This document shows, piece after piece, positions 24,231 to 53,900 of a stretch of 64,000 nucleotides of DNA (the first letter of the stretch is position 1; each line of letters begins with the position of its first letter). The position numbers and the translations under genes are program-made. The stretch comes from an uncultured virus (IMG/VR IMGVR_UViG_3300021256_000067) (taxonomy: Duplodnaviria; Heunggongvirae; Uroviricota; Caudoviricetes). The DNA is taken from IMG/VR virus record IMGVR_UViG_3300021256_000067; one strand, 5' to 3'. The notes under the pieces were generated by a model. The model did no database searches, was not told the origin of the DNA, and worked only from the letters and a program-made list of their open reading frames with translations.

Positions 24231-24233
24231 ATC

Positions 24234-24981: not shown

Positions 24982-24985
24982 ATCT

Positions 24986-32861: not shown

Positions 32862-33401
32862 ATGAAATATTTGAATGAAATATTAATTAACTGGAATAGT
32901 ACCAAATATACAGAGAAAGGAATTTTAAATCAGAATGATATTAAAAAATCATTTGAAAAAATAGATTTAAACAATTATAAAAAATCTATGCATGCGTGGC
33001 TTGACAGTTATAAAAAACCTTTATATCTTCTAGACTATATAAATGATATTCTTAATTTATATTTTTATAATAAAAAAATTAATTTTGAGGAATTTGTTAA
33101 ATATTGTATCGATTTATGGGAAGTATCTAAAATAAAGGCCGGAAATGACTGGATTCATAAGAGTAAAGAAATGTCTGAAATGTTGTTCCATGTAATTGTA
33201 GAAAACTTTAGAAATTTTGGAGAACTCGGAAAAAAATTATTTAAAGTTCCAAGGCGCTCCGAGGTAAGAGAAATATGTGATATCAGCAAAATAACCACCC
33301 TAAGTGATATAACATTCTGGAATTTTACAATATTCGGAGAAGAAGGTATTATATACTGGCTAGTTAAAATCAATACTCCACTTAATTCAACTTTAGAATA
33401 A
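32862..33401 (+). CDS. LNE-leader protein; stand-alone homologue of the last module of the 1429-aa protein
   Basis: MKYLNEILINW; IKKSFEKIDLNNYKKS...YINDILNLYF...TFWNFTIFGEEG aligns by eye with 44227-44700. Confidence 0.85.
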   Translation: MKYLNEILINWNSTKYTEKGILNQNDIKKSFEKIDLNNYKKSMHAWLDSYKKPLYLLDYINDILNLYFYNKKINFEEFVKYCIDLWEVSKIKAGNDWIHKSKEMSEMLFHVIVENFRNFGELGKKLFKVPRRSEVREICDISKITTLSDITFWNFTIFGEEGIIYWLVKINTPLNSTLE

Positions 33402-33405
33402 AAAC

Positions 33406-34002
33406 ATGAAATACTTAAATGAAATATTAATTAATTGGAATCAGCAAGAAGACAATTCAGAAGGAATTATCGATGTTAAAAATGTATCAGATGAAATAAT
33501 AAAAATGGATTTTGATGAATGGATTGCCAAATATACATGGTACCCAGAAAAAATGTCAATCAGAATCTCTGAAAAGCAGTTGATGAAAAATTTTAAATTA
33601 ATATATGAAGTCCTAGAGCCCTATACAGAAGTATTTTTATGGGTATTAGCAGAAGTTATAAACAATATGGCTGATGCAAAATATTGTAAAACCATGCATT
33701 GGAGAGCGCGAATAAACTGTTCTGTTTGGTTATTATTGTTTAATAAATTCCCGACCAGGTTTAATACGAATAAAAGTGAGTGGATTTTAGCAAGCTTTTA
33801 TTCGACATTAAAATCATTACCGTCAAAGACATCAAATATTCTACATATCATCCAGAAAAAGGCCGAAGAAAAATCAGATGACATTGTAATTTCCCCTGAC
33901 AGAAATCTTGTAAGATCTGAATATATTAAACTTGAAAATTGGAATATTGCTACATTTGTATATTTTAAAATTATTAATCCTGTAAAAACATTTATAGACT
34001 AA
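33406..34002 (+). CDS. LNE-leader protein
   Basis: MKYLNEILINWNQQEDNSEGII. Confidence 0.85.
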   Translation: MKYLNEILINWNQQEDNSEGIIDVKNVSDEIIKMDFDEWIAKYTWYPEKMSIRISEKQLMKNFKLIYEVLEPYTEVFLWVLAEVINNMADAKYCKTMHWRARINCSVWLLLFNKFPTRFNTNKSEWILASFYSTLKSLPSKTSNILHIIQKKAEEKSDDIVISPDRNLVRSEYIKLENWNIATFVYFKIINPVKTFID

Positions 34003-34004
34003 TC

Positions 34005-34487
34005 TCAATTAATTTTAACGGAGTTTATAACCCATACAGGAGGAGAATCATAATATCCCGCGCCCCTGCTTCCTACATGTAAAGGCCAATAATCTTGCAT
34101 ATTTCCACCAGGTCCCTCAGGCCACCGGTTTATTTCATCCCATGGCCTTAATGGATTTGTAGCTATATCCCAGCAAGGATCTCCATTTACTATATAAACC
34201 CATACGACATTTTGCACATAATCTAAAATATATTCTATCCCTTTTTTAACAGATTCAGTCTGTGCAATTTGTAAAGCCTTTTTATAAGTTTTATACAATG
34301 GAGGGAGATTTATACTGAAACCTCCACAGCCTTCTTTGGCAATTCCAGGTACATTATATCCATATACCTCGGCATTCGGCTGAACCTCATATTCAGCAGA
34401 CATATATAAAGTATCGCCTCCCATTTCATTGGCGATATTTTTCCAGTTTAGTAAAACCTCATTTAATATATTAATTTTCTTATTCAT
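34005..34487 (-). CDS. LNE-leader protein
   Basis: MNKKINILNEVLLNW; TATAAATA immediately upstream. Confidence 0.8.
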   Translation of the reverse strand: MNKKINILNEVLLNWKNIANEMGGDTLYMSAEYEVQPNAEVYGYNVPGIAKEGCGGFSINLPPLYKTYKKALQIAQTESVKKGIEYILDYVQNVVWVYIVNGDPCWDIATNPLRPWDEINRWPEGPGGNMQDYWPLHVGSRGAGYYDSPPVWVINSVKIN

Positions 34488-34535: not shown

Positions 34536-34542
34536 TTTTTTG

Positions 34543-34908
34543 TGGACCTTATGGGATTCGAACCCATGTCCAAACACCTCAATCATATCCGCTTTCTACA
34601 TGCTTATCCTGTTTAAAAAATTTCGATGAAGATCAGAAAACAGACAAACCTTTTTCTTATCTATCCTTTGTAAAATTCATTACACTACTAAGGAACCTCG
34701 TATAATATATCACTGTATCGATGCATCGTTGTTCTCCGGCCCAGTGAATAAACCTTCAAACCGATGTCCTGTAGCTTATTAGGCTGCAAGAGCGTAAGTA
34801 GTTTCGCCATTTAAAAAGTTGTGACCTGAAGTTTAAAGAGTGATTACCTGCCGTTCCTCTGCATGCTTACGGATTTACCGATAATGCTGTCAAAACCAAG
34901 TAAGGCCC
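34543..34908 (-). ncRNA. ssrA: tmRNA, tag (A)GETTYALAA**
   Basis: 5' GGGCCTT pairs with 3' AAGGTCC-A with G3.U70; T-arm ATGGG-TTCGAAT-CCCAT; internal GGC GAA ACT ACT TAC GCT CTT GCA GCC TAA TAA (34808-34776). Confidence 0.95.
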
Positions 34909-34914: not shown

Positions 34915-35547
34915 TTAAATAAGATATCTATATATATCCCAAGATTCTTCAAACGGCTTTAAAAACATTATAATATCTAATATACTGCCGTCCGGATCTG
35001 GTTCTTCCTCATACCATTCATTTACAGGATCTAAAAGATCCTCCGGGGAAATTTCATCTATATTTATATATTTAAGAATATTTTTTAATATAGTCTGATC
35101 ATGTGCTGTTAATAATCGCTTATAAAGTTTTTCATATTCTGTCCGTATTCTTACGCTTGCATTCATATTAAAATTTTTTGGAGGATATCCAAATAATAAA
35201 GTATGGAAAACCCAATTCATCATTGCGCGGTCGCCAGAGGCGTCTGTTTGAAGAATATGCTCTAGCATTTTTATGCTTATCTTGAAAAATTGATCTGAAT
35301 ACGGATCAATGATCTCATAAAATTTCCTGAATACCCCACGCCTGTCTAAAAAATCCCTTTTCCTTAAAAAAATATCATTGGTTATATAATTAAAATTATT
35401 TTGTGGCATAGCGTCTAAAATATATTTTTTTTGCCATTCTTTCCACGATATTCCCATATTTTTAGAAATTTCATCCTGAGATAAAATACCAATGTCTTTA
35501 GTCTCAGATTTACCCCATTCAATCAATATTTCATTTAAAAATTTCAT
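34915..35547 (-). CDS. LNE-leader protein
   Basis: MKFLNEILIEWGKSETKDIGILSQDEI; body similar to 35550 and 33406 ORFs (W..KY...PY...LLF..PKNF). Confidence 0.85.
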   Translation of the reverse strand: MKFLNEILIEWGKSETKDIGILSQDEISKNMGISWKEWQKKYILDAMPQNNFNYITNDIFLRKRDFLDRRGVFRKFYEIIDPYSDQFFKISIKMLEHILQTDASGDRAMMNWVFHTLLFGYPPKNFNMNASVRIRTEYEKLYKRLLTAHDQTILKNILKYINIDEISPEDLLDPVNEWYEEEPDPDGSILDIIMFLKPFEESWDIYRYLI

Positions 35548-35549: not shown

Positions 35550-36230
35550 TTAAAAAAATATACGTTCTATATTGTATTTTCCGAATTTTTTTATAAACGG
35601 CATTATATCATCTAAAACATTAAATGATTCCTTTTCATCAATAAACCAATCATAATATAACTGGCCTCTATAGGTATAACTCCCTTCATCATTTGATATA
35701 TGTATTTTCTCTAAAATATTTCTTTCTTTTTCTGTTAAAATCGTTAAATAATTATTTCTCCATAAAGAAGACATCCATTTTTCTGTATCTTTAACAAAAT
35801 TTTTTGGTGATCTGCCGAATAATAAATTCGCCGCTGCGAAACTTAATGTGCCTCCATACCATTGGGCCATCGGATTATCCCATGAAGTTCCCTCGTCTAT
35901 AAACATTTTATCTATCATTTTTATAGAAATATCTATAAACTCCTTTGTATAAGGTTCCAGTAAATCGTATAAAATATTGAATATTCCCATAGATTCCTCT
36001 TGGTAGAATCTCCTTTTAAAAACTTCTGGGAAATCGCCGTGTTTAAAAGTCCATTCTTCGGGAATATCTTCTGTAAGATATGTGGCCTTCCAATCTTCAT
36101 AAGATAAACGAGATAATCTGGCATTTATATCTTTTTGAGATATAAGACCATTATCTTCTTCTGGCTGATTTTGCCATTCAATCAAGACTTCATTCAATAT
36201 TTTATTCAGAACTCCACTCATCTTCATCAT
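35550..36230 (-). CDS. LNE-leader protein
   Basis: LNKILNEVLIEWQNQPEEDNGLISQKDI; exact start uncertain. Confidence 0.8.
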   Translation of the reverse strand: MMKMSGVLNKILNEVLIEWQNQPEEDNGLISQKDINARLSRLSYEDWKATYLTEDIPEEWTFKHGDFPEVFKRRFYQEESMGIFNILYDLLEPYTKEFIDISIKMIDKMFIDEGTSWDNPMAQWYGGTLSFAAANLLFGRSPKNFVKDTEKWMSSLWRNNYLTILTEKERNILEKIHISNDEGSYTYRGQLYYDWFIDEKESFNVLDDIMPFIKKFGKYNIERIFF

Positions 36231-36582
36231 CTATTGGTTCAGAACTAGACCAATCAATAATTTCATCTTCTTCATCTTCTAGAGGTTCAGAACTATACTC
36301 AGAGTCTTCATCGTCTTCTGATGATTCAGAATCAGACCAATCAATAATTTCATCATCTATCGGTTCAGAGCTAGATCCATTCCAGAATGTTCCTTTTAAT
36401 TTATCAGATATTTCATCTGTTGATAATATACCTTCATCTTCAGGCACATCATTATCCCAATTCACCAAAACCTCATTCAATCTGGATTTTGATTTCATTA
36501 TCTTACGGACTTTCTGTATAGCCAATGATTCAGCTATATATTTCAGTTCAGTCCGCGTCAGTGTTATTTTTTCTTGATTCAT
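36202..36582 (-). CDS. LNE-leader protein with very acidic repeat tail
   Basis: KITLTRTELKYIAES...RLNEVLVNW...EGIL; tail of SSEP[IL][DE]DE..IIDWS repeats. Confidence 0.75.
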   Translation of the reverse strand: MNQEKITLTRTELKYIAESLAIQKVRKIMKSKSRLNEVLVNWDNDVPEDEGILSTDEISDKLKGTFWNGSSSEPIDDEIIDWSDSESSEDDEDSEYSSEPLEDEEDEIIDWSSSEPIDDEDEWSSE

Positions 36583-37225: not shown

Positions 37226-37855
37226 TTATTCATATAAATGTGCTTGCGGGTGATCTTTCAATTCTATATCCAAACAATTTTCTTGTACCATATGCCATAC
37301 AAGGCCATACACCCCAAAAAGCCATTCTTTCGCTTTCCAAAAAAGTTCTTCGTCATCCAGTTCAGAAGGCATATTTGGTGGTATCTGGGGCATCGGAGAA
37401 TTAAAATACGCGTAAATTTCCCCGTAATGCTTTTCTACATCATTCATAGCATCAGTAATATATATATTCCACCCGTTTTTATCTAAAGTACGATAATCTT
37501 CTTCACATATATAATCCCAATTCATTTGTATACACTTTTTAATGTATTCCAAAAATTTCTTTTTAGACGGGAATATTTGATTTAAATGAAAATTCGCGAT
37601 TGAGATATAATCCGTATCCATAAATTCTGGATATTCATAAAGCGACTCATCTATTATATCTTCATCTGCTATATCTCTAATATCTATCCCGCCTAATTGT
37701 TTAGCGACATCTCCCGATTTCACTATATTATTAGAATCATCCGGTAATTCATTGTTTTCTCCATCACCCCATTGGAGCAAAACTTCATTAAGACGTTTTT
37801 TAATAACTTTAGAAACCTCTTTCATTATATTTTCATATAAAGATCTCTTATACAT
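37226..37855 (-). CDS. LNE-leader protein (extended leader)
   Basis: MYKRSLYENIMKEVSKVIKKRLNEVLLQW; C-terminal LFGVYGLVW weakly like the 32862 ORF. Confidence 0.85.
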   Translation of the reverse strand: MYKRSLYENIMKEVSKVIKKRLNEVLLQWGDGENNELPDDSNNIVKSGDVAKQLGGIDIRDIADEDIIDESLYEYPEFMDTDYISIANFHLNQIFPSKKKFLEYIKKCIQMNWDYICEEDYRTLDKNGWNIYITDAMNDVEKHYGEIYAYFNSPMPQIPPNMPSELDDEELFWKAKEWLFGVYGLVWHMVQENCLDIELKDHPQAHLYE

Positions 37856-40410: not shown

Positions 40411-43400
40411 ATGAATATTTTATATAAAATATTAAATGAAGCTCTGTTACAGTGGAATGATTCTTCTGATATTGAAGATTCAGGCCTTATTAAAGCATCT
40501 GATGTAGAAAACAGGATGAAGACTCAACTCGTCTATAAAATAGATGAGCTGAAAAGGATCAACCTATTCGGTAGTGGTTCTGGTTATATATATGAAAAAT
40601 TTAAAGATAAAATTTATATAGAAGGCGAACATGTTCAATTAGACGAAGATGGGTGTACAGTAAATGTATATAAACCTGGAGAATATAGAGTATATATAGA
40701 GAATTTTGATAAAATTGAAGAAATTTATAGTCATGCATTTAAAATGTCTGATTTGATGTCGATAAACATTCCCGACTCAGTGACTTCGATTGGAGATGGT
40801 GCCTTTTATAAATGCGCCAGCCTGTCCTCGGTGAATATCCCCGATTCGGTAACATCAATTGGTGAGTTTGCCTTTATGGGTTGCACGGGTCTGACCTCAA
40901 TGACCATACCTAACTCAGTGACTTCGATTGGCATAGCTGCCTTCGCGGGTTGCAGCGGCCTAACCTCAGTAACCATCTCCAACTCGGTGACTTCAATTGG
41001 CAATAGCGCCTTCGAGAATTGCAGTGAATTGACATCGGTAACTATTCCTAATTCTGTGAAAAAGATTGGTTCAGGAGTCTTCCAAGGTTGCACTGGCTTG
41101 ACCTCAATGGTTGTAGAGGGTGGAAACACAGAATATGATTCTCACAACAACTGCAACGCTATAATAGAAACTGCAACCAATACTTTAATCAGCGGTTGCA
41201 AGAATACCATTATCCCCAACTCGGTGACTAAGATTGGTGACTGGGCTTTCTATGCTTGCGCCGGTTTGACATCAATAACCATACCCGATTCAGTAACTTC
41301 GATTAGATGGGGGGCTTTCGAAGATTGTACAGGTTTGACCTCAGTGACCATCCCTGACTCAGTGACTTATATTGGTCATCAGGTCTTTACAGGTTGCGCA
41401 AATCTTAAAAAAGTATATGTAGAAAGTATAGATAAATTCAATGAGATAGAGTTTAAATCTGGTACTTCTGATCCTACATGCTATGGTGCAGAGTTAATCG
41501 AATTAAAAAAAGATTTGAATGAAGCTTTATTACAGTGGAATGATTCTGATATTGAAGACTTAGGAATTATTAAAACATCTGATGTAGAAAACAGAATGAA
41601 GGATCCTCAACTTGTCTATAAATTGAATAAACCGAGAAAAATAAAAATATTTGATAGTAATAGTATATATAGAAAATTTAAAGATAAAGTCTATATAAAC
41701 GGTGTATATGTTCAATTAGACAGATATGGATATACGGTAAATGAATATGAACCAGGTGAATATAGAACATACATAGAAGGTTTTGATAAGCTTAAAAAAA
41801 TATATGTTACTGCTTTTGATGGATGCCGGAACTTATTTTCTGTAATTATCCCTAACTCAGTGGCCGAGATTGGCACTGGTGCCTTCGCTTGGTGCAGGGG
41901 CTTGACCTCGGTGACCATCCCCAGTAAGGTAAAAAAGATTGGCACTCAAGCCTTCTGGTATTGCACTGGCTTGACCTCGGTGACCATCCCCAACTCGGTG
42001 ACATCGATAGGCTACCATGCCTTCTATCAATGCACCGGCTTGACGTCAGTGACTTGGAATGCGAAAGCGTGCGATGACTTTGATTATTATAGCTATCCTT
42101 TTGAGAATTTAGAAAATGTCACGTCTTTCTCCTTTGGAGATGAAGTTGAGAAAATACCAGCATATCTTTGCTGTGGACTGACTGGCTTGACCTCGGTAAC
42201 CATACCCAACTCAGTGACATGGATTGGATCTGCGGCCTTTCACAGGTGTAAAAATCTTAAAAAAGTATATGTAGAGGATATAGATAAATTCAATGAAATA
42301 TGCTTTCTAACTAAAACATCTAATCCTACATGTTACGGCGCTGAACTAATTGAACTGAAGAAAGGTTTGAATGAGGCTCTGTTACAGTGGAATGATTCTT
42401 CTGATATTGAAGACACAGGCCTTATTAAAGCATCTGATATAGAAAACAGGATGAAGACTCAGCTCGTCTATAAAATAGATGAGTTGAAAAGGATCAGAAT
42501 ATTTTATGCTAATATTGAAGATCCAGATGATACTCGATATACATATTCTGAATATAAAGATAAAGTTTATGTAAATGGTGAGCATGTTAAATTAGACGGA
42601 AAGGGATATACGGTAAATGAATATGAACCTGGTAAATATAGAGTATATATAGAAGATTTTGATAAACTTGAAGAAATTGAAGATTTTACATTTTATGAAT
42701 GTACTGATTTGATGTCAATCATTATCCCTAACTCTATAACAACGATCAGCTGTGGCGCCTTCTGTGGTTGCAGTGGCTTGACCTCTGTGACCATTCCCAA
42801 CTCAGTAACCTTAATTGACAACAGCGCCTTCCAAAATTGCAGTGGCTTGACTTCGATAGACATCCCTAATACAGTGAGAGAAATTTACAGCAGTGCCTTC
42901 TCTGATTGCACCGGCTTGACCTCTGTGACCATCCCCAACTCGGTAACATTGATTGGTAATAGCGCTTTCTCTGGTTGCACCGGCTTGACCTCTGTGACCA
43001 TCCCCAGTTCAGTGACTGAAATGGGAGGTTGTGTTTTCTATGATTGCACAAACCTTAAAACAATATATGTAGAAAGTATAAGTAAATTCAAGAAGATAAA
43101 ATTTTCGGGATGGGGTGATAAATCTAAATTGCTTAGAAAGGTAAAATTAATTGAACTAAAGAAAGATTTAAATGAAGCTCTGTTACAGTGGAATGATTCT
43201 TCTGATATTGAAGACACAGGCCTTATTAAAGCATCTGATATAGAAAACAGTATGCGTCCTTATCTTATATATAAAGTAGATCTAAATAGGTATGATAATA
43301 TAAAAATATTTGAGCGAAATACTTCTATATATAAAAAATATAAAGATAAAGTTTATATAAACGGTGAACATATTGAATTAGATCAGAATGGATATACAGT

Positions 43401-44700
43401 AAAGGAATATGAATCGGGTGAATATAGAGTATATATAGAGGATTTTAATAAACTTGAAGAAATATGTCACAAAGCCTTTACGGATTGTATAGAGCTGACT
43501 TCGGTTACCATCCCTGACTCTGTGACTAAGATTGGTGAATTTGCCTTCCGTGGTTGCAGCAGATTGACATCGATAACTATCCCTGACTCTGTGACAACGA
43601 TTGGCGCTGCTGCATTCTATAACTGCGACTGTCTGACTTCGGTTACCATCCCCGATTCGGTGACCAAGATTGGTAATAGTGCCTTTATGGAGTGTAGCAG
43701 ATTGACATCGATAACTATCCCTGACTCTGTGTCAATAATTGGAGGTTCTGCCTTTCAAGGTTGCACAGGCTTGACATCAATAACCATTCCCGACTCTGTA
43801 ACTTTGATTAGTGACTATGCTTTCTATTGTTGTACAAGCTTGATCTCGATTGAAATCCCCAACTCTGTGACAAAAATTAATGAATATACTTTCGTTGGTT
43901 GCAGTAGCTTAACCTCGGTGACCATCCCCAACACGGTGATTACGATTGGCCACAGGGCCTTTGAGAGTTGCAGCAGCTTAAAATCAGTTGCCATTCCCGA
44001 CTCAGTGACCAAGATTGGTAATGGTGCCTTCTCGGATTGCACAGGCTTAACCTCGGTGACAATCTCCAATTCTGTAACTGAGATTGGCAAATTTGCCTTC
44101 TGGAATTGTAAAAATCTTAAAAAAGTATATGTAGAAAGTATAGATAAATTTAATGAGATATACTTTATACATGAAACATCTAATCCCACATATTACGGTG
44201 CAGAATTAGTTGAATTAAAACAAGGTTTAAATGAAGCTCTAATTTCATGGGATGATTCAGATACAGAAGATGATTCCCATATATTAAACCACCATAATAT
44301 TAAACGTTCTTTTGAAAGAATAGATTTAAATGATTATAAAAAATCAGTGGCATATTGGCAAAATCAAAATAAAAATTATCCGTGGTTTAAAAATTATATA
44401 AATGATATCATTAATTTATATTTTAATAATAAACAAGATTTTGAGAAATATATAAAAACATGTATTAATGATAGTTATGGTGGCTCTGATCTAAGATCAG
44501 AGGAAATATATTACAGTGTTATTAATAATTACGGTTTATTCATTGATAAGTTATTCAGAATACCGGATGAATCTGAATTAAAAGCTATAGTAGATATTAC
44601 AAAATATGTACCTTTAAAATGGCAGTCTACATTCTGGAATGTCGCTATTTTTGGAGATAGGGGGCTTATATGGTGCATAGTTAAACATAATGAAATTTAA
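40411..44700 (+). CDS. BspA-type (LRR_5) leucine-rich-repeat protein; four LRR modules plus a fifth non-LRR module, each opened by LNEAL[LI]xW
   Basis: Dozens of [17 protein letters not shown] repeats; LNE codons begin at 40432, 41515, 42367, 43168, 44227. Confidence 0.92.
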   Translation: MNILYKILNEALLQWNDSSDIEDSGLIKASDVENRMKTQLVYKIDELKRINLFGSGSGYIYEKFKDKIYIEGEHVQLDEDGCTVNVYKPGEYRVYIENFDKIEEIYSHAFKMSDLMSINIPDSVTSIGDGAFYKCASLSSVNIPDSVTSIGEFAFMGCTGLTSMTIPNSVTSIGIAAFAGCSGLTSVTISNSVTSIGNSAFENCSELTSVTIPNSVKKIGSGVFQGCTGLTSMVVEGGNTEYDSHNNCNAIIETATNTLISGCKNTIIPNSVTKIGDWAFYACAGLTSITIPDSVTSIRWGAFEDCTGLTSVTIPDSVTYIGHQVFTGCANLKKVYVESIDKFNEIEFKSGTSDPTCYGAELIELKKDLNEALLQWNDSDIEDLGIIKTSDVENRMKDPQLVYKLNKPRKIKIFDSNSIYRKFKDKVYINGVYVQLDRYGYTVNEYEPGEYRTYIEGFDKLKKIYVTAFDGCRNLFSVIIPNSVAEIGTGAFAWCRGLTSVTIPSKVKKIGTQAFWYCTGLTSVTIPNSVTSIGYHAFYQCTGLTSVTWNAKACDDFDYYSYPFENLENVTSFSFGDEVEKIPAYLCCGLTGLTSVTIPNSVTWIGSAAFHRCKNLKKVYVEDIDKFNEICFLTKTSNPTCYGAELIELKKGLNEALLQWNDSSDIEDTGLIKASDIENRMKTQLVYKIDELKRIRIFYANIEDPDDTRYTYSEYKDKVYVNGEHVKLDGKGYTVNEYEPGKYRVYIEDFDKLEEIEDFTFYECTDLMSIIIPNSITTISCGAFCGCSGLTSVTIPNSVTLIDNSAFQNCSGLTSIDIPNTVREIYSSAFSDCTGLTSVTIPNSVTLIGNSAFSGCTGLTSVTIPSSVTEMGGCVFYDCTNLKTIYVESISKFKKIKFSGWGDKSKLLRKVKLIELKKDLNEALLQWNDSSDIEDTGLIKASDIENSMRPYLIYKVDLNRYDNIKIFERNTSIYKKYKDKVYINGEHIELDQNGYTVKEYESGEYRVYIEDFNKLEEICHKAFTDCIELTSVTIPDSVTKIGEFAFRGCSRLTSITIPDSVTTIGAAAFYNCDCLTSVTIPDSVTKIGNSAFMECSRLTSITIPDSVSIIGGSAFQGCTGLTSITIPDSVTLISDYAFYCCTSLISIEIPNSVTKINEYTFVGCSSLTSVTIPNTVITIGHRAFESCSSLKSVAIPDSVTKIGNGAFSDCTGLTSVTISNSVTEIGKFAFWNCKNLKKVYVESIDKFNEIYFIHETSNPTYYGAELVELKQGLNEALISWDDSDTEDDSHILNHHNIKRSFERIDLNDYKKSVAYWQNQNKNYPWFKNYINDIINLYFNNKQDFEKYIKTCINDSYGGSDLRSEEIYYSVINNYGLFIDKLFRIPDESELKAIVDITKYVPLKWQSTFWNVAIFGDRGLIWCIVKHNEI

Positions 44701-44900: not shown

Positions 44901-44910
44901 ATATAAGATG

Positions 44911-44982
44911 AGCGATTGACCAGAATCGAACTGGCATCTCTAGCTTGGAAGGCTAGAGCACTAACCATTGTGCTACAATCGC
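44911..44982 (-). tRNA. tRNA-Gly(UCC)
   Basis: CTAGC-CT-TCC-AA-GCTAG; TTCGATT T-loop. Confidence 0.92.
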
Positions 44983-44989
44983 ATAAATG

Positions 44990-45072
44990 TGCCCCGTGAT
45001 GGACTTGCACCACCCATAGCCAAAGCTATCTGATTTACAGTCAGACCCGTTGCTATCTCCGGTCACCGAGGC
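44990..45072 (-). tRNA. tRNA-Tyr(GUA)
   Basis: TCTGA-CT-GTA-AA-TCAGA, long variable arm. Confidence 0.85.
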
Positions 45073-45219
45073 ATATTTTGAGCCTTACAAGATTGCGCAC
45101 TCTTGCAAGTTGTTTATATCTGTGCTTGTCCATCTTTACACCATTCCTTAAGAGCCCTGCATATCAGAATTACGTACTTCTATACGATACCGAACTCACC
45201 TGATACAATCTCAAAATTG

Positions 45220-45291
45220 AGCCTCCTGTCGGATTCGAACCAACGACCTGCTCATTACAAGTGAGCTGCACTACCACTGTGCTAAGGAGGC
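45220..45291 (-). tRNA. tRNA-Thr(UGU)
   Basis: GCTCA-CT-TGT-AA-TGAGC. Confidence 0.93.
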
Positions 45292-45457
45292 AATTAAAAT
45301 AATTTATATAGAAATTCTAGCTAGTCGGATAAAGGTAACAAGGATCCTAAAACCATACCTTGCTTCTCTTTTGGATAAGAGTGTTTGTATATATTTAGGA
45401 CACATACTTCCTAATATCCTCAACCTTTTCTCCAATTTCAATATGTAAATTATTTTG

Positions 45458-45530
45458 TGACCTCGGTGGGACTCGAACCCACGGCTCTTACATTAAAAGT
45501 GTAATACTCTACCAACTGAGTTACGAAGTC
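45458..45530 (-). tRNA. tRNA-Lys(UUU)
   Basis: TTACA-CT-TTT-AA-TGTAA. Confidence 0.92.
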
Positions 45531-45727
45531 ATTTTACGCAAGGCAAACAATAAAACCCTGCTTATCCTTTCTGTTAGTTTCTATTATAGTTTCCAAAACT
45601 TACAATGGCGATTTCCTCACCTTCAAAAATCTCATTTCATTCGGTTGTACAACCTATGATGATTATGGTTTCATCAAATACCCCATACACTTTAATGATC
45701 AGCATGGTTACGTCAGGTCTTGTTTAG

Positions 45728-45884
45728 TCGGATAAGGAGGAATTGAACCCCCACCCAATATGATTATGCTTCTATGACTGCGCGGTCACTTGTTGAAACA
45801 TCAGCATATCGTCTTCAGTATTCCGCGCTTTTATTCCCGAAGCTCCCACCCCTTGTGGGTGCGCTACCGTTGCGCTATTATCCG
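45728..45884 (-). ncRNA. tRNA-Pro-like RNA with a giant structured variable region (157 nt)
   Basis: Acceptor CGGATAA/TTATCCG, D-arm GCGC/GCGC, CCCAC/GTGGG hairpin, ~90-nt insert, T-arm GGGGG-TTCAATT-CCTCC. Confidence 0.7.
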
Positions 45885-45890
45885 TTATTT

Positions 45891-46028
45891 GTGCTTGATA
45901 TGTCATCGTGCTAACCGTTACACTAAGGAGTCGAACCAATCTTATGACACAATCAAGCACTTTGATATGTCATCGTGCTAACCGTTACACTAAGGAGTCG
46001 AACCAATCTTATGACACAATCAAGCACT
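45891..46028 (-). repeat. 67-bp direct tandem repeat (2 copies) encoding a T-loop/D-arm hairpin
   Basis: 45895-45961 is repeated at 45962-46028. Confidence 0.9.
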
Positions 46029-46191
46029 TACTAAAAATGACCCAATACAAATTTGCAACTTCACATTGTTGTTTGCTGAACGTGCTTCTTTGTCACCTTT
46101 ACACCTTCCATCACCGCTATGTATTTAGTAGTCTCGAACTGTCGCGACCAGTCACGAGTAAATACCCCCTTTCAACAATGTCATTTCTTTG

Positions 46192-46263
<72 letters not shown>

Positions 46264-46662
46264 ATATATAGCCAAGATTTTGCGCAATCTGGATACCTAT
46301 CTTGGGGTTCCATGACGTCACCTCTGAAGTGGGTCTCTCTCCATCGCCTAAACAGTGCGCTACGTCAGCATCCAATATCTTGGCTTTTGTAAAAAAGTTC
46401 AATCCTCTGCAGATGGAGTGTTCTGATGAATGATTTGCACGTTCTTTCATCCTTTCAGGACAGCTTTACTATATAAGCTAATCAGACACTCACGAACTGA
46501 ACTCTATGTATAAAATTGAAATCCCTATAGGTAAATGCAAACCATCACACACAGTCAATGAATGGGAGTCGAACCCATAGTCTCTGAACGTTACAGTGGT
46601 GATACCGATGCGCCTAACCACTGACTGATGAACAATCATTCACATTGATTTCAACTTTATTG

Positions 46663-46736
46663 TACTGCCAGCGGGGTATGATCCCGCAATCTCCGCCGTG
46701 AAAGGGCGACGAGTTAGCCAATTACTCCATGGCAGC
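46663..46736 (-). tRNA. tRNA-Glu(UUC)
   Basis: TCGCC-CT-TTC-AC-GGCGG; atypical T-loop ATCATAC. Confidence 0.85.
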
Positions 46737-46795
46737 ATTTGCGGTGCGTACGTGACTCGAACCAATCTTTTCATATTAATCAAACGCACCAATTG

Positions 46796-46869
46796 TACTT
46801 CGGCTGGGATTCAAACCCAGGACCCACAGCTTAGAAGGCTGTTGCTCTATTCATCTGAGCTACCGAAGC
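46796..46869 (-). tRNA. tRNA-Arg(UCU)
   Basis: ACAGC-CT-TCT-AA-GCTGT. Confidence 0.92.
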
Positions 46870-47044
46870 AAATAAACACAGGAATGGACTAGCCAAACAC
46901 ACCTATAGGCGTAACCCACCAACATCCTGTGTTGTCGCAGCGAGATTATGTACATCACGTCTGCCGCTGTTTCTCCCACTTGCTCCTGAGAAACATAGCC
47001 AAACCTTGGAGTGGAGTTTCTGAAAATCTCCCAACCGTATGTAG

Positions 47045-47583
47045 TGGTCGTGATAGGGTTTGAACCTACGACCTCTTGATTCTTACCACACTATGTTACC
47101 ATAGCCAACCTAATATTGCCTCTCCTGACAGGCACTTTACACTGGCGGTCAACTCCAGAAACCTCCTTTTCACAAAGGTATAGGTTGTTGTGGTCTAGAC
47201 TGTTTACCATATTGAAATTCTTGCAAGATTGAGGTTGTTTCGTATAAATTCCTCCAACGTTAATTTTTCGAAGATTCGGAATTACTCATTTTCAACTCAA
47301 ATTTCAACTTAGGTATCACTCATTCAGTCTACACGATTATAATGAATAATGTCAGGTATGGAACAATTCCTTCCCACAGAATATTCAATATATTATCTGA
47401 TTCATTATATTCGCTCGGTGTTGTCCTTACACATTATTGGTTAGTGTGCAAAGTGTTATGCTCTTATCATTCTTTACGATGATTCAAAGGATTTCCACCG
47501 AATTTGGGTGATTCTACTATGGGATTTCTCGCCATAGCACTCTTTATAAAAATGTAACACTCTTCCAACTGAATTACGAAGTC
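47045..47583 (-). pseudogene. intron-interrupted chimeric tRNA (Lys-like 5' half, non-cognate 3' half)
   Basis: 5' exon ~47548-47583 resembles tRNA-Lys 45458; 3' exon 47045-47081 has a full T-arm but acceptor CACGACC does not pair with GACTTCG. Confidence 0.7.
47082..47547 (-). mobile_element. group I intron, no homing-endonuclease ORF (~466 nt)
   Basis: P3 ATCACCCA/TGAGTGAT, P4 TTCGGTG/CACCGAG, P7 AGACTG/CAGTCT, P9.0 ACCACA/TGTGGT, terminal G before AA at tRNA position 37. Confidence 0.8.
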
Positions 47584-47590
47584 AAATCAG

Positions 47591-47663
47591 TGGATCCAGT
47601 GAGACTCGAACTCACGGTCTCCTGCGTGCAAGGCAGGCGCTTTTCCAACTAAGCTATGAACCC
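47591..47663 (-). tRNA. tRNA-Ala(UGC)
   Basis: CCTGC-CT-TGC-AC-GCAGG; G3.U70. Confidence 0.93.
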
Positions 47664-47691
47664 ATCAACTGGCAGTGTTGATAAAAAATTG

Positions 47692-47765
47692 TCGAGAACG
47701 TATGATTCGAACATCTCCTCCTCATCCCAAATGAGGTATGCTAACCGGGTTACACCACGTTCTCG
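47692..47765 (-). tRNA. tRNA-Pro(UGG)
   Basis: CCTCA-TT-TGG-GA-TGAGG; imperfect T-stem. Confidence 0.8.
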
Positions 47766-47965
47766 TGGCGCCGCCTAACTTATATTTTTACATTTAGTAT
47801 ATATCCTAAACACTGGGGCCGTGCGGCATGTTCCCAAGTACTATGGAAAGCTTCTCCCCATCTAATGGCCAATTAGAGTCTCAGTAGTTGCGGTCGAAGA
47901 CGCTAAAACTTGGCAAGGGTTATGATCCTTTGTAGATTACCTAATCTCACCCTATATAATCTTTG

Positions 47966-48111
47966 TCGGTAAAGATGGAATCGAACCATCACTGCTATAA
48001 ATATAAAACATTCAACATTCTATATAAATAACACCTTTGTACCTTAAGACGTCATTATAGTACAAAACCTCCCAGACCAATATGGGTATGCTACCTTTAC
48101 ACCATTTACCA
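47966..48111 (-). ncRNA. second tRNA-Pro-like RNA with a giant variable region (146 nt)
   Basis: Acceptor TGGTAAA/TTTACCG, D-arm, CCCA-TATTGGTC-TGGG, ~75-nt insert, T-arm GATGG-TTCGATT-CCATC. Confidence 0.7.
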
Positions 48112-48114
48112 AAG

Positions 48115-48189
48115 CGGTCCTGACGGGACTCGAACCCGCAACCTCGCACCGTGACAGGGTGGTATGCTAACCAATTGCACCACAGAACC
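48115..48189 (-). tRNA. tRNA-Asp(GUC)
   Basis: CACC-CT-GTC-AC-GGTG; G73. Confidence 0.9.
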
Positions 48190-48739
48190 AAAAAAATAAT
48201 GTCTCGGCTAAAGTAAATTCTGATAACGAATCAATTATTGCATTGTAGTTTATGCCTGATGGCAGTCCGGCATAATTACCCTTCCTCGTTTATGGTATTG
48301 GGCATACACAGTTTCACGAACTGTCAAAACTTAATTCCAATTTCCTTCCGTACTTGTGGAACTAACAATAATTGCCTCACAATAGTTATCAATACTCAAA
48401 ATGTAAAGGAAATTCAAATAATCATTTCAGACTATTTTAATTCAAGAATGTTTGCAACCATTCAAGTTACATTCTATGAGATACTCCACCTTTAAACTAT
48501 TGCTCTTCGTTGTTGTTTTGTTGATGCAAACCCTACCATCGGCGCATCAGTCTTGAACCTTCTGTACTATAGTTCTTCAACATCGAAACCATTATTTAGT
48601 TTTGCGGGTAACAGAGGACTCGAACCTCCTGTAATAATCTTAATTATCTGCAGTTTTAAGATTACACACCACCCAATTTTAAATTCAACTAATGTACACT
48701 CATTGAATACAAATTTGTGTAGAAACCCATGTTTAAAAG

Positions 48740-48813
48740 TTGCGTGGGGTCAGATTCGAACTGACGACCTTCTGCTTATGAGACAGACGAGCTGACCACT
48801 GCTCCACCCCGCA
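48740..48813 (-). tRNA. tRNA-Met(CAU), second initiator-like copy with bulged acceptor
   Basis: TCTGT-CT-CAT-AA-GCAGA; GGAGCAGTGGTCAGCTCG D-arm. Confidence 0.8.
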
Positions 48814-48911
48814 ATATGTAAATAGAAGCAGTAGCATTTAGACCGATTTCAATCGCAACATCCAATTATCCTGCTACGGACTTATGTTCCTTTGTACTTC
48901 TATTTTTTCTT

Positions 48912-49000
48912 TAAAAGAAAGGTTAAGCTCTATGCATTTAAGCTACTCTCCGTACGCCGTCATTGAGATTGGATTTCAACCAATATCACCTTTCTTCTTA
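48912..49000 (-). ncRNA. circularly permuted tRNA-like RNA (T-arm before D-arm)
   Basis: AAGAAGAAAGGT...ATTGG-TTGAAAT-CCAAT...loop-closed acceptor-like stem...GCTT-AAATGCATA-GAGC...ACCTTTCTTTT. Confidence 0.55.
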
Positions 49001-49209
49001 GATGCCACCGAAGGATTCGAACCTCCTCCCGAATCACCAGGGATGTACCTGCGGGTTCCATATATGCAGCTAACATACGGTGGCAATGTAAAGTTGAAAC
49101 TCTTGCAAGATGTGAGTGCAGTTTCTATAACTACCAAGAGCAGTCCCTATACTGCTGCTTTCAACGTCTTGAGGTTTTAATTTTATACTCACAAATTCCA
49201 ACTTTATTG

Positions 49210-49280
49210 TAGCCCAGCACGGTAACGCTCCGTGTTCTCAAGAATGAAAATCTTGCGTTCTGCTTCTAAACTACAGGGCC
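49210..49280 (-). tRNA. tRNA-Glu(UUC), atypical T-loop AGCGTTA
   Basis: CAAGA-TT-TTC-AT-TCTTG. Confidence 0.8.
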
Positions 49281-49583
49281 ATATTTGAGCAATTTGATAT
49301 GGAGTGTACTGCTCATTGATTCATGTTGTGATCTTCAACAATCTTCTCTCCTTGAATCAGAAATTCTCCGGATAAATTCTGAATCCGTAGCATCCTACTC
49401 AGGCTTGACGAAGGCCTCTCGGAACTCTTGCTCGGCTAATTTACAGAAAACTAGCAAAAATAAATGGATTCTTCTTATAAATCTATGTGGACAATCAAAT
49501 GCAAAAAAGGAGGTGTCCATGGAAATCTATCAGAATCTTGCACATTTGGCGAGAATCCACGATCGTGATAGACTTGTTATTTG

Positions 49584-49657
49584 CGCTCCCTCTTGGACTC
49601 GAACCAAGGACCCTCTGATTAACAGTCAGATGCTCTAACCAACTGAGCTAAGGAAGC
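49584..49657 (-). tRNA. tRNA-Asn(GUU)
   Basis: TCTGA-CT-GTT-AA-TCAGA. Confidence 0.93.
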
Positions 49658-49680
49658 TATCAAATTTTCTAATTTATTAC

Positions 49681-49802
49681 CCACTATGTCAATGAGCTCT
49701 GTTTTAAAATCACTCTACAAAGTTATATCAAAATAATGACATAAAAAAATTTTTTGAGTAATTAACTTTATTTTAACATTTAAGTTAAATTTTGTTTAAG
49801 TA
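49681..49802 (-). promoter_or_regulatory. tRNA-operon promoter cassette (TAACTTTG -7 box + boxA-like element), copy 1
   Basis: ~120 nt closely similar to 50174-50296; -7 box at 49718-49725; GCTCATTGACATA at 49685-49697. Confidence 0.75.
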
Positions 49803-49886
49803 CCCGGAGCCGGGGTCGAACCGGCACGGCCGCAATGGCCAAGGGATTTTAAGTCCCTCATGTCTACCCAATTCCATCATCCGGGC
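49801..49886 (-). tRNA. tRNA-Leu(UAA)
   Basis: AGGGA-CT-TAA-AA-TCCCT, long variable arm. Confidence 0.93.
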
Positions 49887-49914
49887 ATTTATTCAATATA
49901 TCAAAGAACATTTG

Positions 49915-49988
49915 TGACCCCGGTGGGACTTGAACCCACGACCCCTTGATTAAAAGTCAAGTGCATCTACCAACTGAGCTACGAAGTC
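49915..49988 (-). tRNA. tRNA-Lys(UUU)
   Basis: CTTGA-CT-TTT-AA-TCAAG. Confidence 0.9.
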
Positions 49989-49994
49989 AACTCG

Positions 49995-50068
49995 TGGTCC
50001 TTCTAGGGCTTGAACCTAGGACCTCTTGATTATGAGTCAATTGCTCTAACCAACTGAGCTAAAGGACC
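49995..50068 (-). tRNA. tRNA(CAU): Ile2 (lysidine-type) or elongator Met
   Basis: TTGA-CT-CAT-AA-TCAA; fully paired GGTCCTT/AAGGACC acceptor. Confidence 0.88.
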
Positions 50069-50075
50069 AATATTG

Positions 50076-50163
50076 CGGAAAGAGAGGGATTCGAACCCCC
50101 GATACGCTATTAACGCATGCCGGTTTTCAAGACCGGTGTATTCAACCGCTCTACCATCTTTCC
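50076..50163 (-). tRNA. tRNA-Ser(UGA)
   Basis: CCGGT-CT-TGA-AA-ACCGG, long variable arm, G73. Confidence 0.93.
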
Positions 50164-50173
50164 GAATTTATCT

Positions 50174-50296
50174 CCACTATGTCAATGAGCTCCGTTTTAA
50201 AAATACTTTACAAAGATATATCAAATCAATGATATAAAAAAATATTTTCAAATATTTAACTTTAATTTAACATTTAAGTTAAATTTTGTTTAAGTA
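50174..50296 (-). promoter_or_regulatory. tRNA-operon promoter cassette (TATCTTTG -7 box + boxA-like element), copy 2
   Basis: Duplicate of 49681-49802; -7 box at 50211-50218. Confidence 0.75.
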
Positions 50297-50366
50297 TCCC
50301 GGGAAGGAATCGAACCTTCATTTACGGTTTAGAAGACCGTCATTCTATCCGTTGAATTACCGAGAC
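50295..50366 (-). tRNA. tRNA-Arg(UCU)
   Basis: ACGGT-CT-TCT-AA-ACCGT. Confidence 0.9.
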
Positions 50367-50589: not shown

Positions 50590-51123
50590 TTATTGGCAAG
50601 AGAAAGCATCCTCGCCAATCGAGGTCACTGAGCTTGGGATTTCAATCTTGGTCAAACCACTGCAACCATAGAAGGCCTGGTCGCCAATCGAAGTCACCGA
50701 GTTGCCGATTGTCACCGAGGTCAAGCCTTCGCAATAAGCGAAGGCATAGTCGCCAATCGAAGTCACCGAGTTGGGGATGGTCACCGAGGTCAAGCCTCTG
50801 CAATTATTGAAGGCACTGTTATATATTTTTTTAACTTTATCAAAATCTTCTATGTATATATGGTATTCACCTGGTTCATATTCATTTACCGTATATCCAT
50901 TCCGATCTAATTTAATATGTTCACCGTTTATATAAACTTTATCTTTATATTTTTTATAACCATTATTTATAGGATTAAATATTTTTATTCTTCCGCGTCT
51001 ATTCACTTTATAGACAAGCTGATATTGTATATATTTTTTTACATCAGACGCTTTAATGATTCCGGAATCTTCAATATCAGAATTATCCCATTCGATTAAT
51101 ATCCTATTTAATATATTATCCAT
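50590..51123 (-). CDS. stand-alone single BspA-LRR module with LNR leader (C-terminally short)
   Basis: [28 protein letters not shown] + [11 protein letters not shown] cap + about three LRR_5 repeats. Confidence 0.85.
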
Positions 51124-51898: not shown

Positions 51899-52735
51899 TT
51901 ATATAGTATGGGTAAGTTGTATTTTTGTGTTATTATCATCCCAGTATTCTGATAATTTAAATCCATCTATGCATAAATCTGTATCAAACGGAAGATCAAA
52001 TTTAATCATATTACTTGGTTCGGATTTTTCGACAGCGAGCATCCGCCCTAATTCGTGAAGATCTAAAAATCCTTTTCCTTTCTTCCAATAAATGTCATTA
52101 ATATTAATAAACACCTTTTTAATATATTTAAATTCAAAGGGAGAATCAAAAGTATAATCGGGGTTTTTAGTATCTGTTTTCTCAAAATGTACAGATATTC
52201 CTATATTCTCATTCAGAAATGATATCATATAACCTATAAAATCCCCGTAATAGAATTTATATTTTTTATATAATATCCCTAATCCGTCAATTTTTTTAAG
52301 TAATCCATTTATAATATTTTCAATATCAGCCCTTAATGAACGGTATTCATCTGAATATATTCCTCTTGCCAAGCTGCTTGGTTCAAAAAATATATCATTC
52401 ATAGTAAAATTGACATTTATTTCATAAGCATCTTTTCCTACCATTCCTATATCACTCACCGCGTCATATGAAAGCCATGTATCAAGTACTTCTTTACTGT
52501 GAGTAATAAACGATAATTTATTTCCCGGATTCATTAAAATATGGGATGCGCAGAAATATATATAATCATAAATTCTTGTATATACATCTATAATATTATT
52601 CTTAAGATATTCCTGTACTTCTTCAATATGATCATTAAGATCATAAAAAGAATTTTGAGATAATATTCCATTAGAATCCTGAACTGTATCAGAATTCCAT
52701 TCAATTAAAATCCTATTTAATATCTTTTTATTCAT
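51899..52735 (-). CDS. LNR-leader protein
   Basis: [27 protein letters not shown]. Confidence 0.8.
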   Translation of the reverse strand: MNKKILNRILIEWNSDTVQDSNGILSQNSFYDLNDHIEEVQEYLKNNIIDVYTRIYDYIYFCASHILMNPGNKLSFITHSKEVLDTWLSYDAVSDIGMVGKDAYEINVNFTMNDIFFEPSSLARGIYSDEYRSLRADIENIINGLLKKIDGLGILYKKYKFYYGDFIGYMISFLNENIGISVHFEKTDTKNPDYTFDSPFEFKYIKKVFININDIYWKKGKGFLDLHELGRMLAVEKSEPSNMIKFDLPFDTDLCIDGFKLSEYWDDNNTKIQLTHTI

Positions 52736-52991: not shown

Positions 52992-53900
52992 TTAAGTCCA
53001 AGGTACAAACGGAAATATCCAATACCAAGGATGATATTCCCACATGCACTTGTTTATATTTGTAAATAAATTTAATTTTCCAGGATCTTCTATATAAAAA
53101 GCATCTTTATTTGTCGGTATAGATACTAGATACATGGAATAATCATCTTCCCATACTTTTAATGCTTTAACACTGATAGGCGTATTTATATTATTAAGAG
53201 TAATTTGACCGAGGGTTTTAAAATTTCCATATTGTATATTCCTGCTGCCTGATTCCCATTCGTTTTTTGTATTAATAATATCTTCTATTATTGATAAATC
53301 TTCACCAAAAATTTCATTTTCTGCATATTCAAGATATTTTTTTACAGTATCCTGTATTCCGTTTTTTCTTATCATTGCCCTAACATTATTCCCTCTAATA
53401 TCAAATCCTGCTATATAACACCATGGAATATATTCATTTGAGGTACTATAAGATAATACATAATTTTCTGTTCTGGTTACCCAATTTAAAAACGGATCAG
53501 CGGAAAAATAATCAATATTTCCTTTTTTAACTTTTGTATTAAGATTGCATATAGTATTATTACTTAATCCTCTATAGACATTTAATAACGATCCTAATTC
53601 TGACGAATTAATTTCTATATTTGGAGTATTTATATCTATTTCTAAAACATCTGTATCCGCTGAGCCGAACGGCCATTCAACAGAATCTGCAAAATTTTCT
53701 GATTGTAAACCTTTAAACAAAAAATTAAATGTATCTATTGCCCATTTAACATTCTTTATATATTCTGGAGAATCCCATTCATAAACACCTTTAAGCCGAT
53801 TATTTATAGAATCAGTAGATATAATTTCATTGGTGCCTGTCAGATAGTTTCCCCAATCAATCAAAACTTCATTTAAATATTTTATATTTTTTATACCCAT
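52992..53900 (-). CDS. LNE-leader protein
   Basis: MGIKNIKYLNEVLIDWG...EIISTDSI. Confidence 0.8.
   Translation of the reverse strand: MGIKNIKYLNEVLIDWGNYLTGTNEIISTDSINNRLKGVYEWDSPEYIKNVKWAIDTFNFLFKGLQSENFADSVEWPFGSADTDVLEIDINTPNIEINSSELGSLLNVYRGLSNNTICNLNTKVKKGNIDYFSADPFLNWVTRTENYVLSYSTSNEYIPWCYIAGFDIRGNNVRAMIRKNGIQDTVKKYLEYAENEIFGEDLSIIEDIINTKNEWESGSRNIQYGNFKTLGQITLNNINTPISVKALKVWEDDYSMYLVSIPTNKDAFYIEDPGKLNLFTNINKCMWEYHPWYWIFPFVPWT

Follow-up and report, generated by a model that had tools for sequence, protein, structure and literature searches.

The head-loading and head-processing systems of large tailed phages are the closest described counterparts of the gene considered here. In the T-even phages the internal head proteins are diverse, and sections of PMC3012670 describe the targeting sequence alone as conserved. 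Sections of PMC5694885 give a length of 10-20 residues for the T4 targeting sequences, and report cleavage after Glu for the S77 head proteases of T4, phiKZ, 201phi2-1 and SPN3US alike; self-cleavage at the C-terminus was observed for those of SPN3US and phiKZ and was suggested to be a conserved feature. The polyvalent proteins of phages and conjugative elements (Iyer et al. 2017, sections of PMC5512222) are multidomain proteins encoded amid virion genes; packaging and injection are predicted for them, and peptidases process some of them. Here we describe an open reading frame (ORF) in 64,000 nucleotides (nt) of DNA from an uncultured virus (IMG/VR record IMGVR_UViG_3300021256_000067; this whole stretch is called the window). 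The ORF, at 40411..44700 on the plus strand, encodes a chain of five modules, each headed by a copy of the same sequence of about 32 residues, the tag. We infer that this arrangement may serve capsid loading, cutting of the chain and delivery into the host.

The five-module chain and its tag

The ORF is one uninterrupted frame of 4290 nt (34-38% G+C) that encodes 1429 amino acids (aa) and ends with TAA. Lak megaphages have been proposed to read TAG as Gln (sections of PMC11165621). When TAG was read as Gln both ends of the chain ORF were unaltered, and an alternative code was rejected as its explanation; TAG is rare as a stop (one of 61 genes checked). An identical 1429-aa protein (P0004) exists as an independent record in a public protein library. 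Near-identical DNA was found in metagenome runs from the ruminant gut. Contigs of run X1 match the chain gene without differences, contigs of four runs were too fragmented at the repeats for module counting, and contig joints such as 40511->43330 (runs X1 and X3) represent either a shorter variant or a repeat artefact. RNA-library contigs lying on parts of the chain gene do not show transcription. The parts of the chain are as follows, with an arrow at the proposed cut and LRR standing for leucine-rich repeat.

40411..44700, plus: chain ORF of five tag-headed modules in frame, 1429 aa
40432..40527, plus: tag 1 (aa 8-39), LNE↓ALLQW..., preceded by MNILYKI
40411..41514, plus: module 1; tag, beta cap (KFKDKIYIEGEH...PGEYRVYIE), LRR_5 body, C-cap ...LIELKKD
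41515..42366, plus: module 2; tag 2 (41515-41610), cap, LRR_5 body
42367..43167, plus: module 3; tag 3 (42367-42462), cap, LRR_5 body
43168..44226, plus: module 4; tag 4 (43168-43263), cap, longest LRR_5 body
44227..44697, plus: module 5; tag 5 (44227-44322, LNE↓ALISW) and a non-LRR domain, paralogue of 32862..33401

The motif LNEAL[LI]xW stands at aa 8, 369, 653, 920 and 1273, always at a module start. LNE[AS] was found only at these five starts, and 0.045 occurrences were expected from 1000 shuffles of the protein. Modules 1-4 can be aligned from the tag via a beta-rich cap and LRR_5 repeats to the ending ...NLKKVYVE...LIELKK, with 56-62% identity when module 2 serves as reference. Pfam LRR_5 (PF13306) matched seven stretches of the ORF (E 1e-215); Pfam and profile scans of the window proteins revealed no enzyme family in it. 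In an AlphaFold2 model of module 3 the cap and the LRR part have a predicted local distance difference test (pLDDT) score of 85-97, and tags are of low confidence. Foldseek matched this model to the BspA/TpLRR structures 4fs7 (E 1e-7) and 6mlx (E 3e-7), and also to 4gt6. Pfam, model and Foldseek together describe tandem repeats of about 23 residues that form a TpLRR-like solenoid. Module 5 lacks LRRs; its identity to the product of gene 32862..33401 is 42% (E 9e-37). The N-terminus of the chain, MNILYKILNEALLQWNDSSD, has no hydrophobic signal core or lipobox when read by eye, without a signal-peptide predictor.

The five motif copies, the build of modules 1-4 (leader, cap and LRR_5 repeats ending in NLKKVYVE...ELKK) and the unrelatedness of module 5 had been noticed in a preliminary description of this DNA, and all three observations were reproduced. 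It had also named two separate genes opening with the same leader, one for each module type (50590..51123 and 32862..33401). Both genes are real, but their leaders are variants of the motif and not LNEAL, and they are only two of the ten further window genes that open with the tag or bear it after a short extension:

32862..33401, plus: stand-alone tag gene (MKY-LNEILINW), paralogue of module 5
33406..34002, plus: stand-alone tag gene, all-alpha cargo family
34005..34487, minus: stand-alone tag gene (LNEVLLNW; second half of the tag divergent)
34915..35547, minus: stand-alone tag gene (MKF-LNEILIEW)
35550..36230, minus: stand-alone tag gene; modelled tag (residues 1-30) with pLDDT <50, cargo all-alpha
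36202..36582, minus: tag gene; N-terminal extension of 34 aa before the tag, tail repeated and very acidic
37226..37855, minus: tag gene with a 21-aa N-terminal extension (...VIKKR-LNEVLLQW)
50590..51123, minus: stand-alone gene of tag, cap and short LRR_5 part (LNRILIEW)
51899..52735, minus: stand-alone tag gene (LNRILIEW), cargo of no assigned family
52992..53900, minus: stand-alone tag gene (LNEVLIDW), cargo of no assigned family

A single short N-terminal peptide is common to otherwise unrelated proteins of one phage. Its LNEAL motif is the first helix of the portable tag, which consists of a basic lead-in, an amphipathic helix L-N-x-h-L-h-x-W, an acidic loop and G-h-h-x-x-x-D-h. A tag profile built from 25 sequences was searched against 1.84 billion representative proteins and matched 77 protein clusters at E<=0.001, mainly of 180-300 aa with the tag at residues 1-12; three matches (P0038, P0067 with its fn3 repeats, and P0077) are apparently false. 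Among the 113 distinct tag instances, 82 begin at residues 1-12 of the protein. Position 8 is W in all 113; L occupies position 1 in 110 and position 5 in 111, and N occupies position 2 in 110. Position 3 is more variable (E 76, K 22, R 11), as is position 4 (I 52, V 37, A 19), and the charge over the ten residues after the W averages -3. Where position 3 is K or R, position 7 tends to be E or D (odds ratio 3.9, p 0.003, indicative only since the instances are related), a pairing that fits an exposed helix face. In two AlphaFold2 models, each from an alignment of seven rows, the tag is a short helix with pLDDT <50 next to confident cargo, and is, as modelled, separate from the cargo fold. Judging from the profile matches the tag is restricted to a Lak-related megaphage clade; the 893-aa product of window gene 58794..61475 aligns with all Lak-A, -B and -C records at 45% identity across 81% of its length.

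The cargo is diverse. Pfam families were sought in 62 of the 77 profile matches, the other 15 being the window's own proteins, fragments, or P0002, P0003 and P0009. LRR_5 was found in 10 tag-library proteins, DUF285 in 13 (two of them also with LRR_5) and FGE-sulfatase, a C-type-lectin-like family, in six. A cytidylyltransferase-like domain, a piece of Lactamase_B and fn3 were found in one protein each, the last in P0067, one of the false matches. No Pfam family was assigned to 32 proteins, two of which were judged false tag matches. The cytidylyltransferase-like domain (in P0074) scored 21.8 bits with a cut-off of 21, and a GNAT domain in a chain of contig L012 (L012:18833) was barely above threshold (21.5 bits, cut-off 20.7). 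For the all-alpha cargo model of 35550..36230 Foldseek gave no PDB fold match at E<=0.001, and Protein Atlas returned nothing for this gene; neither its cargo nor that of 32862..33401 had a tblastn match in GenBank phages. A Protein Atlas lead (score 0.85) that would make 32862..33401 a relative of HamA had a low shared-feature count and was treated as chance. Gene 51899..52735 has no relative among the viral contigs searched. The tail of the protein encoded by 36202-36582 (minus) is nearly all D, E and S, with repeated IIDWS and SSEPIDDE units.

Fused and split forms, and a proposed cut-site signature

The same modules occur fused and split. In locus L003 four tag genes lie head to tail with overlapping stops and starts (...KLIELNK-stop, then MKYLNEILIEW...), and in L004 an LRR gene ending ...KLIELKK-stop overlaps a gene for tag and FGE. 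In the chain ORF the joints read ...LIELKK[DG]-LNEAL... (sequence across a joint: ...LKKDLNEALLQW...), and their DNA is consistent with a 5-nt loss that merged two overlapping frames. No joint contains ATG or GTG, and two joints encode Leu1 as TTG, the other two as TTA; internal translation starts were therefore ruled out as an explanation of the chain.

At least eight other in-frame chains, with two, three or five tags, were found in relatives (P0005-P0009, P0040, P0074 and L012). P0005 (1520 aa, five tags) consists of an untagged N-terminal domain with an HExxH motif, three LRR modules, DUF285 and one further domain. P0006 (1055 aa) and L012:9443-11377 (644 aa) have three tags each, P0007, P0008, P0009 and P0040 have two each, and P0074 is built of a nucleotidyltransferase-like domain, a tag and cargo. 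Module number varies between relatives: P0009 has the N-terminus (MNILYKILNEAL) and the module 5 of the chain ORF, and one LRR module where the chain has four. Repeat number appears to vary as well, since L014:9989-10591 of a near-identical strain encodes 200 aa and 50590..51123 encodes 177 aa, a difference in length, between unaligned genes, of one 23-residue LRR repeat.

The untagged domain of P0005 and P0006 (residues 1-340, about 340 aa) carries its HExxH motif as SHELTHC, has no Pfam match and leads into ...LFKQNL-LNE↓[AS]LLQW. It could be an embedded metallopeptidase of the sort seen in polyvalent proteins. Neither the window nor the related loci examined contain a counterpart of the P0005 N-terminal domain or of the two non-tag halves of P0074.

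These forms support the view that five members of one phage-specific multigene family, each made of a tag and its cargo, are concatenated in the chain ORF. Independent cargo had also been proposed in the preliminary description, and the separate overlapping genes and the chains of two, three and five tags bear this out. Tandem tag genes would have fused by losing the stop/start overlap, and the fused chain would then have grown by recombination between conserved module ends. In the chain ORF the fraction of identical codons is 0.72-0.93 in tag, cap and C-cap versus 0.38-0.56 in the LRR cores, and this higher likeness of the module ends points to recombination or gene conversion there.

An exact 35-nt word of the LRR cores (window 41961-42001) is common to 13 loci of rumen Bacteroidales (L016-L028). 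In LRR genes of rumen Bacteroidales, Prevotellaceae and Muribaculaceae genomes this word often recurs at a spacing of 69 nt, and contig depth spikes over the LRR cores in gut metagenomes fit its sharing. Tag and beta cap are absent from the 13 bacterial LRR loci examined. Recent transfer of bacterial DNA into the LRR modules is not claimed, as the 13 loci have no stretch of at least 50 nt at 90% identity and the best alignments are 69-75% identical.

Tags inside chains differ from N-terminal tags at the proposed cut. We compared 82 N-terminal tags with 20 internal tags that lie more than 40 residues into the protein; P0055, with its mis-called start, was omitted from the internal count, and two [VM]ESLLIDW tags were read as V-x-E↓S. 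E followed by A, S or T was found in 19 of the 20 internal tags and in two of the 82 N-terminal ones. N-terminal tags have E (49), K or R (31) or another residue (2) at position 3, and I, V or L (80) or A (2) at position 4; K or R at position 3 was not found in any internal tag. When each internal tag was paired with the N-terminal tag closest to it in downstream sequence, position 4 of the latter was I or V in 16 of 20 cases. L1, N2, L5 and W8 are retained in both groups alike. The sequence upstream of the internal tags differs at five joints or more, which follow an LRR C-cap, a truncated LRR, the HExxH domain, DUF285, the nucleotidyltransferase-like domain or a GNAT-containing region.

The clade has a protease gene that bears similar sites. 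ORF L015:8121-9917 (599 aa) encodes a Peptidase_S77 (PF03420, 44 bits with a cut-off of 27) that also matches the head maturation protease family phrog_207 (E 2e-28). It ends 66 nt before a tag-LRR gene, and the contig carries three other tag genes. The protein has LNE↓S 16-18 residues from its start, before the catalytic domain, and INE↓S and LNE↓S directly after this domain. At the aligned positions of the Lak-C1 protease (Peptidase_S77, 57.6 bits) stand LNE↓A, INE↓S and LNE↓S; elsewhere in the N-terminal stretch the two proteases show little conservation. For [LI]NE[AS] the background is 0.13 occurrences per 600 aa; outside tags the motif occurs eight times in 37,650 residues of clade ORFs, and three of the eight are in the L015 protease. 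Other head genes of the lineage are a gp20-type portal gene in L004 and, in Lak-C1, a gene for a gp23-type capsid protein with ...AKLNE↓DAF... about 50 residues into the open frame. The T4 sequences used for comparison were MKTYQEFIAE↓A (IPII and IPIII), ...ITE↓A (IPI), LTE↓A at 65 of gp23 and LRE↓S at 10 of gp24, which we take to be true cleavage sites.

Two untagged proteins have related motifs. The 1059-aa product of L012:11407-14586 (minus) contains ...LAVLNE↓SQYG at residue 38, perhaps the sign of a propeptide. The 245-aa product of window gene 51143-51880 (minus), which lies between tag genes, contains EEINE↓AKEY 20 residues from its end.

The cut rule of the preliminary description, Glu in a generic (L/I)-x-E, proved too loose, as [LI]xE was seen 22 times in the chain ORF and 15 were expected from shuffles. 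Its piece sizes were computed correctly: cuts after E10/371/655/922/1275 would give 361, 284, 267, 353 and 154 aa. The idea that a prohead protease makes these cuts has indirect support from the internal E↓A/S/T signature and from the clade S77 protease with its LNE↓S, INE↓S and LNE↓S borders. The Glu is variable in N-terminal tags (K or R in 31 of 82).

Competing explanations of the chain

The best explanation of the chain, to which we give about an even chance, is loading into the capsid followed by cutting. On this reading the tag is the counterpart in this clade of the T4 capsid-targeting sequence. The tag would bring cargo into the prohead; the S77 (gp21-type) protease would cut after the Glu of LNE↓A where tags lie within a chain; five pieces that keep most of the tag would be freed, and the released modules may enter the host with the DNA. 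Some chains bear enzyme domains that need cytoplasmic cofactors (the GNAT domain of L012:18833 and the cytidylyltransferase-like domain of P0074).

Several observations weigh against loading and cutting. The recognised cargo (LRR_5, DUF285, FGE/C-type-lectin-like) is typical of extracellular binders and of phage receptor-binding tips, and is unlike known internal head proteins. MKYLNEILIEW does look like the T4 sequence MKTYQEFIAE, but the pattern is so short that the likeness cannot be put to the test. Tag genes also occur in the midst of baseplate genes, and the S77 protease gene is on another contig of the clade (L015), outside this window. Lak-C1 encodes an S77 protease, but its 540-kb record has no match to the tag profile; the tag family therefore marks a separate Lak-related clade and is not a general Lak feature. 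One internal tag, LNEVLLNW of P0040, has no small residue after the Glu. In 33 of the 82 N-terminal tags the Glu at the proposed P1 is missing, and at P1' almost every one of the 82 carries I or V; most members of the family would thus stay uncut at the tag. The cut would strip the invariant L1 and N2 from the modules while conservation extends about 25 residues beyond it, which suggests that the main job of the tag is to bind something; cutting would be an added feature of chains, and the tag as a whole would be more than a cut site. The LNEAL-type internal tags may also share descent or have undergone gene conversion. The 20 cases are then not independent, and 19 of 20 overstates their independence.

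A fuller version of the proposal, which we hold only tentatively, is that the clade loads its head with a large and fast-changing arsenal of binder scaffolds (LRR, DUF285, C-type-lectin-like) and a few enzymes under one tag. Chained members would be freed by the head protease; the cargo would be injected along with the DNA and would bind and block host defence proteins. Between strains, module and repeat number would shift by recombination in the conserved DNA of tag and cap.

The serious rival, though in our view rather unlikely, is that the chain is an uncut multivalent adhesin or receptor-binding protein on the exterior of the virion (tail, baseplate or capsid), with the tag as a docking or linker peptide for interchangeable modules and with module number tuning avidity; a multivalent protein with five docking peptides had been the alternative offered in the preliminary description. 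The cargo consists of scaffolds of cell-surface binders (structures 4fs7, 6mlx (TpLRR) and 4gt6; families LRR_5, DUF285 and FGE-sulfatase), tag genes lie amid baseplate-wedge genes (phrog_219, phrog_43) and large virion genes, and module and repeat number differ between strains, as in adhesins. The 35-nt core word shared with LRR genes of rumen Bacteroidales is also in keeping with an adhesin, and the retention of L1, N2, L5 and W8 in internal and N-terminal tags is what a binding helix would show. An external adhesin, however, leaves unexplained why E plus a small residue occurs almost only in internal tags and why the joint tripeptide is identical to the sites that flank the protease domain of the clade. 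The tag-fused GNAT and nucleotidyltransferase-like domains would have no cofactor outside the cell, no trimerisation or fibre-like sequence is evident in the chain, and the tag is predicted to be flexible. In such an adhesin the tag would represent a new docking peptide of the virion, able to carry many exchangeable binding heads.

More doubtful still is a role outside the virion, in which the tag would address proteins to another partner in the infected cell (a chaperone, a compartment or a host target) and the chains would be ordinary fusions. A portable, flexible, clade-restricted tag, many cargo domains without a recognisable family, and tag proteins that have no direct link to the capsid would all agree with this. 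The tag genes, however, are interleaved, sometimes overlapping (ATGA), with portal, baseplate wedge, head protease and head completion genes, and the E-small signature of the joints requires an extra assumption. It is highly improbable that assembly error produced the chain ORF, or that it is a fusion of tandem paralogues in decay, with no function as a chain: short-read contigs are interrupted at the repeated tags, and modules are skipped at some contig joints, but 4290 nt are open, P0004 is identical, run X1 contigs match along the gene, in-frame chains recur in relatives, and the internal tags are the best-conserved parts.

Genomic setting and comparison with known systems

The related IMG/VR contigs are estimated to be 2-11% complete at 9-64 kb; the genome should therefore be several hundred kb long. 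Landmarks around the tag genes of the window are:

34542-34908, minus: tmRNA gene (tag peptide GETTYALAA) inside the first tag-gene cluster, about 10 kb from the tRNA array
44910..50366, minus: 16 tRNA genes in an array that separates the chain gene from the second tag-gene cluster
54021..54587, plus: T4 gp4-like head completion gene, followed by large virion genes

Shared N-termini are not confined to the tag family. Five small paralogues at 7546-9123 (minus) and 22128-22511 (minus) form a second such family and start with MK(S/N/A)YT(N/D)(L/I)xQS(Q/K)KLA(E/K)I(L/I). Four paralogues at 23769-25390 (minus) and 29996-30487 (minus) have the common opening (E)EKDLVLQDLCARLPYGV, and paralogues of 511 and 545 aa (25593-27128 and 27486-29123) start with MD(D)YKEKYEN. 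An RNA ligase (phrog_968) and a protein with a polynucleotide kinase 3'-phosphatase domain (PF08645), encoded at 15513-16991 (minus) and 21554-22093 (minus), are likely to be an RNA-repair pair. The overlapping genes 37884-38339 and 38336-40159 (minus) both match phrog_11371 and DNA-methyltransferase PHROGs, the first through its C-terminal part and the second through its N-terminal part, and may represent a split or permuted methyltransferase.

If capsid loading is correct, the tag together with the LNE-plus-small-residue rule would list the head-packaged, injected proteins of uncultured phages of about 0.5 Mb, and the tag could help to find such cargo in metagenomes and to package foreign proteins. 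Phages would then be able to deliver repeat-protein binders, not enzymes alone, into their hosts. The system would be a second, independent example of the load-then-clip logic of T4, extended to polyproteins: the internal-protein system of T4 scaled up on antibody-like repeat binders.

Among the listings and abstracts retrieved on capsid targeting, prohead-protease polyproteins and megaphages, none describes a tag-punctuated chain of cargo or LRR cargo. In the main text of two Lak papers and a jumbo-phage overview, a term search found no mention of LRR, BspA or polyprotein.

The repeat family and the fold of modules 1-4 are those of the BspA/TpLRR surface proteins of bacteria. In contrast to these, no export signal was seen at the N-terminus of the chain, the modules have a phage-specific tag and beta cap, and longer alignments reach 69-75% identity.

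The chain ORF resembles polyvalent proteins in that its five modules are of two kinds and that it has virion genes as neighbours in the window, as do related loci; its relatives join GNAT, nucleotidyltransferase-like and HExxH domains to tag modules. Unlike polyvalent proteins, the chain ORF itself contains binder modules only, without a catalytic effector, and its joints are a repeated conserved tag. The term 'Leucine-rich' is absent from the text of PMC5512222.

With phiKZ, 201phi2-1 and SPN3US and their processed head and ejection proteins (motif A/S/G-x-E) the clade shares a giant phage background, an S77 protease and, as proposed here, cutting after Glu. The INE↓S and LNE↓S sites directly after the catalytic domain of the clade protease recall the self-cut proteases of phiKZ and SPN3US (sections of PMC5694885). 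Unlike in the phiKZ group, P3 is Leu, Ile or Val and P2 is usually Asn; the group is not described as chaining independent cargo with a repeated tag.

The likeness is greatest to T4, where IPI, IPII and IPIII (and Alt) with gp21 also combine unrelated cargo that has only a short N-terminal peptide in common. The lineage has head genes of the gp20, gp21 and gp23 types. The window order of tRNA array, tag genes, gp4-like gene and large virion genes recalls that of T4 (tRNAs, ipI, 57B/57A, 1, 3, 2, 4, then 53, 5), and the proposed cut after a Glu before a small residue recalls IAE↓A and ITE↓A. The differences are equally clear. The T4 sequence is 10-20 residues long and removable, whereas the tag of about 32 aa lies mostly downstream of the proposed cut and would stay on the product; the Glu is absent in 33 of 82 N-terminal tags, tags also lie inside chains, and the cargo is LRR, DUF285 and lectin-like. 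Homology to the T4 targeting sequence is not demonstrable, and packaging is here a prediction from the genes. What distinguishes this system from those described is a long tag that would be mostly retained, the repetition of tags in chains, cargo built on binder scaffolds, and its occurrence in one Lak-related clade.

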